The notes under the pieces: model-generated | The model's input: the letters and a program-made list of their open reading frames with translations, nothing else | Databases searched by the model: none | Told to the model about the DNA's origin: nothing | In this document: piece by piece, positions 5,955 to 14,103 of the stretch | Numbering within the stretch: the stretch's first letter is position 1 | Layout: every line of letters starts with the position of its first letter | IMG/VR virus record: IMGVR_UViG_3300009419_000013 | Coordinates: 10,138 to 74,137 of that record | Direction: 5' to 3' (one strand) | Length of the DNA stretch: 64,000 bases | From: a virus | Translations under genes and position numbers: made by a program

Positions 5955-5986
5955 TTTTTTTTACTCGATTTAATTTCTTATATTTG
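5955..5986 (+). promoter_or_regulatory. Bacteroidota-type housekeeping (early) promoter
   Basis: TATATTTG (5979-5986) fits the -7 box TAnnTTTG. The upstream TTTTTTTACTC is shared with 19449-19480. Confidence 0.7.
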
Positions 5987-6012
5987 TGAGAAATTAAATA
6001 TCCCATGATACA

Positions 6013-6591
6013 ATGGCTCAAGATGATAGTATAATAAAATTGCCAGTTGGGTATAGCCACAGGAAGAATCTATCTTTTATAGATTCCGAATTTTTGAATC
6101 TTCCTTATTGGAGAATAGAAAAAGACGAGCATGATAGTGAATCGTATCACGTCTATGTAGCTGAAAATCTTGAATCTATAATAAGTCATAGAAGTGACGA
6201 AATATATTTAGAAATGGCTGGGGTCTGGTCAAAAAATTCACACTGTAAAAGAATGCAAGTTGGTTGTCTAATTGTCAAAAATAAGTCAATTATTTCTGAT
6301 GGTTATAACGGTTCACCCTCCGGGTTTCCGAATGTGTGTGAATCAGATACAAATGATACCTTGCCATACGTTTTACATGCCGAGGCAAATGCAATAACAA
6401 AGTTAGCCAGGGGAACTCAAAGTTCCAATAATTCAACATTATATGTTACATTATCGCCATGTTTTGAGTGCTCCAAATTAATAATACAATCTGGAATAAA
6501 GCGGGTTTTATTTTCCGAAGTATATAGGAAACCTGAATCGATTGCTTTTTTAGCAGAGGCCGGAATAGAAATAATCAAATTGACCAAATAA
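6013..6591 (+). CDS. dCMP deaminase
   Basis: GYNG, HAEANA and TLSPCFEC zinc-deaminase motifs. Confidence 0.93.
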   Translation: MAQDDSIIKLPVGYSHRKNLSFIDSEFLNLPYWRIEKDEHDSESYHVYVAENLESIISHRSDEIYLEMAGVWSKNSHCKRMQVGCLIVKNKSIISDGYNGSPSGFPNVCESDTNDTLPYVLHAEANAITKLARGTQSSNNSTLYVTLSPCFECSKLIIQSGIKRVLFSEVYRKPESIAFLAEAGIEIIKLTK

Positions 6592-6595
6592 AAAC

Positions 6596-7228
6596 ATGCA
6601 AAAGAAAGAAAAAAACATCCAAAAATTAGCGGAAGATTTCATATTGGCTAGAACTGATTCGGCGTTTAGCCTTTTATTTGAAAGACTTAGACCTGGAATA
6701 CTTAATCACTGTTTCCTTATTGTAAAAGAGCAAGAATTAGCACAGGATGCTTTTTTAAACACCATGACAAAGATATGGACAAAAATCGAACAGTATAATG
6801 GTGAACGTGGGAATTTTTCTACATGGTGTTATAATATAGCTAGGAACGAATCATTACTTCTGATGAAATCTAGGAAAAGATATTATAATCACAGCGACAG
6901 CGAACTTGAATTCTTATCTTCTAAAAATACCATAGGTGATCTCGGTGGAATTTATATGATAGAGGATGATCCGACAAATACATTTTTTAATGACGGGGAA
7001 AGCTTGGATGTAATATACGAATCAGTTTTGGATGAGATTAGAGCACTGCCCGAATTATATAGGGATATAATGATAGATCGAGAGATAAATAATATGAAGT
7101 ATAAAGATATAGCTGAAAAATACGACATAAAGAAAAGATCTATAGCTACCAGAATAAGAAGAGCTAGATGTAAAATTAGAAAAAGCATAGACGGAAACAT
7201 TACGCTTATAAGCGGATATAAAAAATAA
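6596..7228 (+). CDS. Phage RNA polymerase sigma-70 factor, ECF-like
   Basis: Region 2 (LAQDAFL..KIW.KIEQY...GNFSTWCYNIARN) and region 4 (LPELYR...MKYKDIAE...IATRIRRAR). Confidence 0.88.
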   Translation: MQKKEKNIQKLAEDFILARTDSAFSLLFERLRPGILNHCFLIVKEQELAQDAFLNTMTKIWTKIEQYNGERGNFSTWCYNIARNESLLLMKSRKRYYNHSDSELEFLSSKNTIGDLGGIYMIEDDPTNTFFNDGESLDVIYESVLDEIRALPELYRDIMIDREINNMKYKDIAEKYDIKKRSIATRIRRARCKIRKSIDGNITLISGYKK

Positions 7229-7235
7229 AGCTTTT

Positions 7236-7670
7236 ATGTTAAAATTAATTAAAGTGATTAAGGAAATAATTCTATATAGAGAATATTCCAAAATAATTAA
7301 GAAGGAATCAAAGAATGCACAGCTTTGGAGCAGAAGAAAATTAAGACTTGATTTTTTTAATAGAATATACACAGTTATAAATTTACCGCCTGAGGTTTTA
7401 TATGCCACTGATTTACCTAAGGAATCAAGACCTTCATTCGTTATAAGCGAAACTAAGGATATTAACGACTATCTCAAAGCTTTAAATCTTGAGGAATTAC
7501 TTACAATGTGGATCGAACCAGTAAAAGGTACTGATGAGGAGTCATATCTTGTTGTTTATCAATTTTTATTTAGATATTTGAGCTGGCTTTGGATAATCAG
7601 GTTTTTATTTGAGATAGCTATAGTGGTAACCATAATATATAATTTGAATTGGATAATATCTTTATTTTAA
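7236..7670 (+). CDS. Hypothetical protein with C-terminal TM helix
   Basis: ORF in operon; hydrophobic C-terminus. Confidence 0.6.
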   Translation: MLKLIKVIKEIILYREYSKIIKKESKNAQLWSRRKLRLDFFNRIYTVINLPPEVLYATDLPKESRPSFVISETKDINDYLKALNLEELLTMWIEPVKGTDEESYLVVYQFLFRYLSWLWIIRFLFEIAIVVTIIYNLNWIISLF

Positions 7671-13502: not shown

Positions 13503-13654
13503 GCCGTAACTTTTATTTTGCTCCTAAGGGGGAAAATCAGAATAAACCAGGCGAGACTTTTGTTCAATCTTCTGATGGTAAATTAAGTAAAGCTCCCGAT
13601 GGCAAAGAAATAGAATCCTCCGACGAAGACGAGGAGGAAGAGGATAAGGAATAA
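13499..13654 (+). CDS. -1 frame C-terminal extension (51 aa) of the 11331 ORF
   Basis: After TTA AAA AAA AAG TAA the -1 frame reads VSRNFYFAPKGENQNKPGETFVQSSDGKLSKAPDGKEIESSDEDEEEEDKE* and ends at the terminator. Confidence 0.55.
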   Translation, partial: VSRNFYFAPKGENQNKPGETFVQSSDGKLSKAPDGKEIESSDEDEEEEDKE

Positions 13655-13688
13655 AAAGAATGTAGCTCATGAGCTACATTCTTTTTTT
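13653..13688 (+). terminator. Intrinsic terminator
   Basis: aaaaagaatgtagctc-at-gagctacattcttttt perfect inverted repeat plus T-tract. Confidence 0.85.
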
Positions 13689-13690
13689 AT

Positions 13691-13720
13691 GAAATCATTT
13701 ATCTGTTTTATACTAAAACT
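13691..13720 (+). promoter_or_regulatory. Putative middle promoter GAAAT-N18-TAAAACT
   Basis: Upstream of the gp55-like late sigma. Confidence 0.55.
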
Positions 13721-13743
13721 ATAAACCAACCAAATAACAAACA

Positions 13744-14103
13744 ATGGCTAAAGAATATGTTAAAAACAGCGAGCTTTTAGCAGCTGTAATAGAATCTAAA
13801 AGTAAGGGTCAACTTACACCCGATACAATAGATATGTTTATGTTAATGATAAACGGAATATCTAAAAAAATGTCATATAAGGATCCGGAGGATAAAGAGG
13901 ATTGTATGGCATTTGCAATGGAGGATCTTTGTAAATATTGGAATAGATTTAATCCTGAAAAATCAAATAATCCATTTGCTTATTATACACAGATAGCTAA
14001 AAATGGATTTGCTAAGGGATGGAAAAAAATACATCCTCCGAAAAATCCTAAAACAATACCTTTTAGCTATATAACGGGTGAGGATAATTCGTATAACGTT
14101 TAA
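13744..14103 (+). CDS. gp55: Late-transcription sigma factor (T4 gp55-like)
   Basis: YVKNSELL and KYWNRFNPEKSNNPFAYYTQIAKN, the gp55 family signature. Confidence 0.85.
   Translation: MAKEYVKNSELLAAVIESKSKGQLTPDTIDMFMLMINGISKKMSYKDPEDKEDCMAFAMEDLCKYWNRFNPEKSNNPFAYYTQIAKNGFAKGWKKIHPPKNPKTIPFSYITGEDNSYNV

Follow-up and report, generated by a model that had tools for sequence, protein, structure and literature searches.

Conserved promoter classes and sigma factor genes suggest a sigma relay in an uncultured jumbo phage of Bacteroidota

The viral DNA analyzed here (IMG/VR record IMGVR_UViG_3300009419_000013) encodes two sigma factors, one of the extracytoplasmic function (ECF) type and one resembling the T4 late sigma factor gp55, and its genes are preceded by promoter-like elements of three classes. 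The wiring of these elements is conserved in the clade: class I precedes the operon holding the ECF-type sigma gene, class II precedes the gp55-like sigma gene, and class III precedes virion genes, an arrangement that reads as a relay architecture. In the mechanism that we propose, the host core RNA polymerase would serve the phage throughout, and the host primary sigma would start class I transcription, whose early products would include the ECF-type sigma and a further phage sigma of 298 amino acids derived from a primary sigma. The ECF-type sigma would then read class II, GAAA(C/T)-N16-17-(C)TAnAA, before genes for replication and nucleotide metabolism and before the gp55-like sigma gene. 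Finally, the gp55-like sigma, which has a region-2-like domain only, would read the single-box class III element, GATATATA, before virion genes. We consider this relay as a whole (host sigma to ECF-type sigma to gp55-like sigma) moderately probable; the matching of sigmas to classes and their order in time we infer from sequence.

The window, meaning the whole stretch of 64,000 nucleotides (nt) under study, comprises bases 10138-74137 of one 74,137-bp viral contig, has a GC content of ~33%, and carries nearly all of its genes on the + strand. Treating its genome as complete was rejected, since the 74-kb contig is a fragment and lacks terminal repeats. Relatives of both window sigma genes are encoded on >200 viral contigs, with identities to the window genes of 63-100% among the best 80 loci for each. 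A complete relative, G001, has 373,467 bp with 307-bp direct terminal repeats and ~90% nucleotide identity to the window contig; it was fetched whole and stands in for the full genome in the motif and profile searches.

Support for the promoter classes was sought in strand, position before gene starts, fixed spacing, and retention before the same genes rather than in raw counts. Conservation was counted in distinct relatives (37-99% protein identity), for which shuffled controls gave 0-6. Dozens of relatives retain the promoter class of each gene amid varying flanks. By these measures, the three promoter classes described in an earlier, sequence-only reading of the window are real, conserved cis-elements, and the sites and genes that it had placed at 5955, 19449, 6596, and 13691 are indeed located there. 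Its expectation of enrichment over background was borne out for class I, weakly for class II, and for class III in the intergenic DNA of G001, and failed for the raw class III count in the window.

In orthologous regions, the class I consensus consists of a run of ~7 T, (A)TCCG, ~11 variable bases, and T-TAnnTTT(G/A), with the two middle positions of the -7 box free to vary (TATA, TACA, TATG, TACT, TACC). The window holds three copies, all on the + strand. The first (5955..5986; T-run beginning at 5955, ACTCG, N11, and TATATTTG at 5979-5986) precedes the dCMP deaminase/ECF-type sigma operon, and the second (19449..19480) precedes an ATP-dependent DNA ligase gene (19497); these two sites have in common the T-run, ACTC, N12, and TATATTTGTGA. 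The third, a variant at 25905..25936 (T-run, ATATCGG, and the -7 box TAAATTTA) before the 3'-5' exonuclease gene 25955, was missed by the sequence-only reading and is also present in G001. Class I, which had been claimed to precede the sigma operon, is kept before 43 of 55 dCMP deaminase orthologues, and likewise before 33 of 39 ligase orthologues. The composite ending in G occurs in ~30 regions of G001, most of them located between 43 and 237 kb, vs 0.4 in shuffles. Of the three classes, only class I emerged from an unbiased dyad search of G001, and a search for a fourth motif class in intergenic regions without classes I to III yielded only class I variants and tRNA genes.

The class I -7 box is the Bacteroidota primary-sigma element TAnnTTTG, in agreement with the published consensus, which was refined to TAHHTTTG in F. 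johnsoniae (PMC6847099). The phage promoters share with Bacteroidota primary-sigma promoters this -7 element and its free middle positions; they differ in that a run of seven T followed by ATCCG replaces the -33 TTTG, and in that a subclass ends in A. Such A-ending boxes (TAnnTTTA-C), several of them followed by CATAA, occupy ~15 further regions of G001, and may reflect either wobble at this position or recognition by the phage primary-like sigma. Members of the A-ending subclass were noticed at 72-172 kb in G001, e.g., upstream of 72422, 72857, 73113, 77747, 90841, and 109105.

Class II has the form GAAA(C/T)-N17-18-TAnAA or, written alternatively, GAAAC-N16-17-CTAAAA, with a C often standing before TA; several of its -10 boxes are TATAAT or TACAAT. 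The spacer of 17-19 nt first described for it is thereby sharpened. Nearly all orthologous sites have a spacer of 17 or 18 nt, with exactly 18 nt in 34 of 36 gp55-like sites and 30 of 31 clamp loader sites, and the spacer sequence is variable. The window contains 37 matches (background, 21.8 ± 4.5), and in G001 the motif occurs in 31 of 523 upstream windows vs 19 of 2,206 control windows. Retention before orthologues was found for p7236 (40/51), p8522 (47/49), the gp55-like sigma gene (36/47), and the clamp loader gene (31/39), so that the claim of class II sites before the gp55-like sigma and replication genes is upheld. The corresponding window sites, all on the + strand, are at 7194..7221, within the 3' end of the ECF-type sigma gene and before p7236; at 8477..8503, before p8522, where the site is retained down to 37% identity; at 13691..13718 (GAAAT-N18-TAAAA), before the gp55-like sigma gene; and at 20829..20856, before clamp loader, guanylate kinase, and exonuclease genes. 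A composite at 15164..15211 (+), with a class III box at 15164-15171 followed by class II at 15185-15211, precedes the first portal gene, and both elements are kept in relatives. Further class II candidates, whose conservation was checked in the 90%-identical genome alone, lie on the + strand at 24964..24991 before 25005 (endonuclease-like), at 38856..38883 before 38900 (a weak thymidylate-kinase-like match), and at 44289-44317 and 44564-44591 before 44324 and 44602, respectively.

The proposed reader of class II is the ECF-type (group 4) sigma of 210 amino acids encoded at 6596..7228 (+). The operon opens with a dCMP deaminase gene at 6013..6591 (+; PF00383, 2.7e-24; phrog_174, 3.2e-53). The ECF-like sigma that the sequence-only reading had seen at 6596 matches Sigma70_r2 (2.5e-9) and Sigma70_r4_2 (4.6e-10) and scores 64.3 bits against TIGR02937, the sigma70-ECF model, with a cut-off of 42.9; with only domains 2 and 4, a small size, and a matching family model, it has the properties that define the ECF group. 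Its PDB matches are SigW (5wuq, the best), sigmaE, and SigH. Across 62 orthologues the recognition helix, KKRSIATRIRRAR, does not vary, and the HMMER alignment places the phage helix ATRIRRAR on RSRIFRAR of sigmaE and KTRIHRGR of SigW. The equivalent of sigmaE R176 is kept, and Thr stands at the S172 equivalent, as in SigW. According to Lane and Darst, R176 contacts the G at -35, and position 172 is Ser with G and Thr with A at -34. The retained R176 together with Thr172 therefore predicts GAAAC, which is the class II -35 box, and the invariance of the helix matches the invariance of that box. ECF promoters carry G, AAC, and a T-tract at -35 with spacers of 14-17 bp, and those of SigW have TGAAAC and, at -10, CGTA (PMC5758882; PMC1540707). 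On these grounds, the ECF-type sigma would probably read class II.

Directly after the ECF-type sigma gene and behind its own class II promoter lies p7236 (7236..7670, +), encoding 144 amino acids with a hydrophobic C-terminal segment; it adjoins the sigma gene in the relatives examined. No Pfam or PHROG relative and no recognizable anti-sigma domain was found for it, and the protein Atlas gave only unnamed viral clusters below 0.9. From its position, p7236 might, speculatively, be a candidate anti-sigma factor.

Class III is GATATATA without a -35 element; a T-rich stretch lies upstream, with no second conserved element. The 74-kb contig holds 16 forward copies and 1 reverse copy. Its intergenic DNA, 2,317 nt in all, accounts for 11 of the 16 forward copies, and for 14 of 16 a start follows within 65 nt. 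The raw count of GATATATA in the window is not above that of dinucleotide shuffles (15 vs 10.2 ± 3.2) and was rejected as evidence. In sense-oriented upstream intergenic DNA of G001, the box is the top enriched 8-mer, with 52 copies there vs 10 in all coding sequence, and 51 intergenic regions contain it vs 2.5 ± 1.6 in shuffles. From the end of a box to the start codon there are 13-35 nt. In line with the earlier assignment of class III to virion genes, the boxes precede the sheath, tape-measure-like, portal, and prohead protease/capsid genes as well as many late genes of no recognized function. They are kept before 22 of 25 orthologues of p9133, 41 of 41 of p11331, and 37 of 37 of p4374. On the + strand of the window, a box at 9100..9107 lies before p9133 and downstream of a terminator-like hairpin (9069-9090); tandem boxes, AATATATA and GATATATA, at 11267..11308 precede the 723-amino-acid gene 11331, both being present in 41 of 41 orthologues; and a box at 30200..30207 precedes the prohead protease (Peptidase_S77) and major capsid (Gp23) genes. 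More boxes on this strand, at 23914, 26730, 27505, 33972, 40906, 42879, 55170, and 58577, lie 4-64 nt upstream of starts.

A sigma without region 4 is expected at promoters without a -35 element. The proposed reader of class III is such a protein, a minimal gp55-like late sigma of 119 amino acids encoded at 13744..14103 (+), and the earlier call of a gp55-like sigma after position 13691 is confirmed by matches to phrog_234 (1e-15) and to T4 gp55 in PDB 7d7c_F (9.7e-6) over residues 9-114 of 185. Because the core- and DNA-binding segment of T4 gp55 comprises residues 44-123 (PMC2988020), this alignment implies that the gp55-like protein carries that segment. It lacks the C-terminal third of T4 gp55 (segment 141-156 and the clamp-binding end), ending at about T4 residue 114-120, and its length is 119 amino acids in 35 of 41 distinct relatives. 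The last ~16 codons encode a nearly invariant hydrophobic-acidic tail, TIPFSYITGDDNSYNV. This tail recalls the clamp-binding ends of T4 gp55 and gp33 in character, not in sequence. The protein thus shares with the T4 gp55 family the region-2-like homology and, in silico, a single 8-bp box without a -35 element before late genes, and departs from it in clamp-coupled activation. The bacterial beta clamp profile (DNA_pol3_beta) has no match in G001; a sliding clamp probably exists that the profiles do not recognize, because a clamp loader gene is present (window 20862-21806). Between the late gene 11331 and the gp55-like gene lies a hairpin with a T-run, i.e., an intrinsic terminator (13653..13686, unstranded), which stands directly upstream of the class II box and is conserved in most relatives; the gp55-like gene would thereby be shielded from the late gene upstream.

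The third phage sigma lies outside the window contig. In G001, a protein of 298 amino acids (RpoD_Cterm, 1.7e-36; G001 60890-61786, L161:1342-2238) is a derivative of the Bacteroidota primary sigma: regions 2.1-2.3 are host-like, region 2.4 is altered (AVWWIRQ to AVWHIRK), and region 4.2 is poorly conserved. In G001, as in 7 of the closest relatives, its gene stands behind a class I promoter with a G-ending box, so that there would be two early phage sigmas, both of them candidate readers of class II. Homologues with 40-93% identity are widespread in metagenomes, and all three sigmas are carried by the same large contigs.

A Bacteroidota host is indicated by three independent lines: the -7 box of class I, sigma kinship, and gene leaders. 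The nearest cellular relatives of the 298-amino-acid sigma are Bacteroidota primary sigmas of 287 amino acids from Polaribacter, Flavobacterium, Cytophagales, and Chitinophagaceae, which have the N-terminus MRQLKI in common with the phage protein. Across all gene starts of G001, a Shine-Dalgarno-like core precedes only 5% of genes, and the leaders are 50-65% A from -14 to -3; low Shine-Dalgarno use and A-rich leaders match the description of translation initiation in Bacteroidota (PMC6847099). E. coli-type promoters are not enriched (73 vs 81.9 expected). The best ECF model for the sigma at 6596 is TIGR02985, a Bacteroides-expansion family, which was likewise counted toward a Bacteroidota host.

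Several observations weigh against the proposed relay. ECF sigmas are usually autoregulated, and here the ECF sigma operon is driven by class I, with no convincing class II site before it. The phage ECF-type sigma has Ala at the position of sigmaE R171, the contact for the C of AAC, so that the structural rule transfers in part only; perhaps this Ala also accounts for the choice of C or T in the class II box. Of the three classes, class II has the weakest statistics, and it fell below threshold in the unbiased dyad search on G001. Its -10 element (TAnAAT-like), 16-18 nt from GAAACA, also fits a sigma70-like geometry, and the second early phage sigma could read class II instead. For the late step, profiles of gp33 (phrog_254) and gp45 (four models, among them phrog_223, PF09116, and PF02916) have no match in G001. 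No RNA runs are listed among the sequencing runs for the phage. Lastly, the region of the published -33 TTTG motif, which was weak in the F. johnsoniae study itself (PMC6847099), is occupied in class I by the T-run and ATCCG.

The alternative that fares best concerns the first step. Class I might be read wholly or mainly by the phage primary-like sigma, either after inactivation of the host sigma or at the A-ending subclass, in which case there would be four sigmas and more than three tiers. The A-ending sites themselves speak for this; host promoters hardly ever depart from G at -5 (PMC6847099). The phage protein combines its host-like regions 2.1-2.3 with changed residues in 2.4, and the conserved ATCCG element is outside the host consensus. 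On the other hand, the primary-like sigma gene needs a time-zero promoter and has a G-ending class I box, and the G- and A-ending subclasses are interspersed, have the same upstream element, and may be one class with a wobble. We therefore regard this alternative as doubtful, if worth keeping in mind. Put forward equally tentatively is a four-sigma program in which the diverged primary sigma would replace the host sigma and read T-run-ATCCG...TAnnTTTA-C, an ECF sigma would act in the middle phase, and the 119-amino-acid gp55-like sigma would act late without gp33 or clamp coupling.

At the second step, the 298-amino-acid sigma might read class II, with the ECF-type sigma running a small or conditional regulon not recognized here. 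This would accord with the early, class I position of its gene in 7 of the closest relatives, with the TATAAT or TACAAT sequence of several class II -10 boxes, and with the differences of its regions 2.4 and 4.2 from the host sigma, which probably confer a new specificity. It is nevertheless unlikely: GAAAC is a SigW-type ECF -35 box that fits the Thr172/R176 rule for the ECF-type sigma, region 4.2 of the 298-amino-acid sigma varies among relatives while GAAAC is invariant, and a derivative of a primary sigma is more simply paired with the TAnnTTT-type boxes of class I. At the last step, the idea that GATATATA is a conserved 5'-leader element (an RNA processing or translation signal), or a promoter for a factor other than the gp55-like sigma, suits its narrow distance to starts, its raw count no higher than in shuffles, and the lack of detectable gp33 and gp45 in G001, but is very improbable because the box in many cases opens a new transcription unit behind a terminator hairpin, is similar to the T4 late box in its length, in its AT content, and in having no -35 element, occurs in tandem before gene 11331, and is accompanied by an extremely conserved gp55 homologue.

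The proposed relay from host sigma through ECF-type to gp55-like sigma is a variant of a known phage sigma relay. In the cascade of the Bacillus phage SPO1, host sigmaA is followed by gp28 and then by gp33/gp34. As in SPO1, successive phage sigmas would reprogram the host core polymerase, with no phage polymerase, and each sigma gene stands behind a promoter of the preceding class. Different from SPO1 are an ECF-type middle sigma with a SigW-like -35 box, a T4 gp55 homologue as late sigma, an extra phage copy of a host-type primary sigma, and a Bacteroidota host with its unusual -7 element. In T4, late transcription depends on gp55, gp33, and the gp45 sliding clamp at the box TATAAATA. The phage shares with T4 a gp55 homologue over the core- and DNA-binding segment, a T4-type head module (Portal_T4, Gp23, Peptidase_S77), and, ahead of head, portal, and tail genes, one AT-rich box of 8 bp with no -35 element; it differs in the box itself (GATATATA), in the length of the protein (119 vs 185 amino acids) with its own conserved hydrophobic-acidic tail, in that the gp33 and gp45 profiles match nothing in G001, and in having no MotA/AsiA middle step. 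The statement that MotA and AsiA are replaced held insofar as PF09114 and PF09010 have no match at E ≤ 1 in G001, which is ~90% identical to the window contig.

Other parts of the sequence-only reading need revision. It had called the cascade complete and three-tiered; the window is a fragment, G001 encodes the 298-amino-acid sigma in addition, and that gene too lies behind class I. Its term T4-like suits the morphogenetic core and sits badly with a 373-kb jumbo phage whose gp55-like sigma is truncated and in which no gp33 or gp45 was detected. As to the relay from host to ECF-like to gp55-like sigma, the conserved wiring stands, whereas the pairing of sigmas with classes is inferred and an extra early sigma has to be accommodated.

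Iyer et al. (2021) described group 2 jumbo phages without RNA polymerase, whose sigmas are minimal or RpoD-like and whose subgroup 2.2 includes Bacteroidetes phages (PMC7824862). The present phage fits this description, although a gp33 orthologue reported there was not detected here, and the main text of that study names no ECF-type sigma in these phages (PMC7824862). Our literature search found no paper that defines promoter classes or such wiring for the clade.

The phage itself is an uncultured jumbo phage of Bacteroidota with a genome of ~373 kb, and the complete genomes of its clade are contigs of 319-434 kb. Sequencing runs that share its sequence are labelled as subsurface, freshwater, or lake-water metagenomes. 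Megablast of the region gave no match among GenBank phages, and tblastn of the sigma gave only 24-30% matches, in Lak and other megaphages. The T4-type head module includes Portal_T4 (3.5e-57), Gp23 (7.2e-40), Peptidase_S77, a head-closure protein, and a tail sheath. Profiles of phage RNA polymerases (RNA_pol_Rpb2_6 and the T7-type RNA_pol) have no match in G001, a weak negative for the T7-type model, which was silent in all control genomes too. The window also holds tandem full-length T4-type portal paralogues (15235-16833 and 16838-18454) and tandem tail-tube-like paralogues (1864-2418 and 2435-3010), and intergenic stretches at ~39-54 kb of G001 resemble a tRNA gene cluster with conserved GGTTCGAATCC-type arms. 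After the stop codon of the 723-amino-acid open reading frame, located at an A run, ~150 nt of coding-like sequence (window 13488-13655) would encode an acidic tail, lack a start codon, and end at the terminator; this stretch is compatible with a frameshift extension.

Taken together, the wiring suggests that an ECF-type middle sigma can take the place of MotA/AsiA in driving a late sigma of the T4 type. The clade is large and uncultured, and comparative support for the regulatory plan read from its sequences is unusually strong. The phage copy of a Bacteroidota primary sigma is a natural probe of -7 element recognition, and the promoter classes offer a usable grammar by which the early, middle, and late genes on hundreds of jumbo-phage contigs from metagenomes could be annotated.

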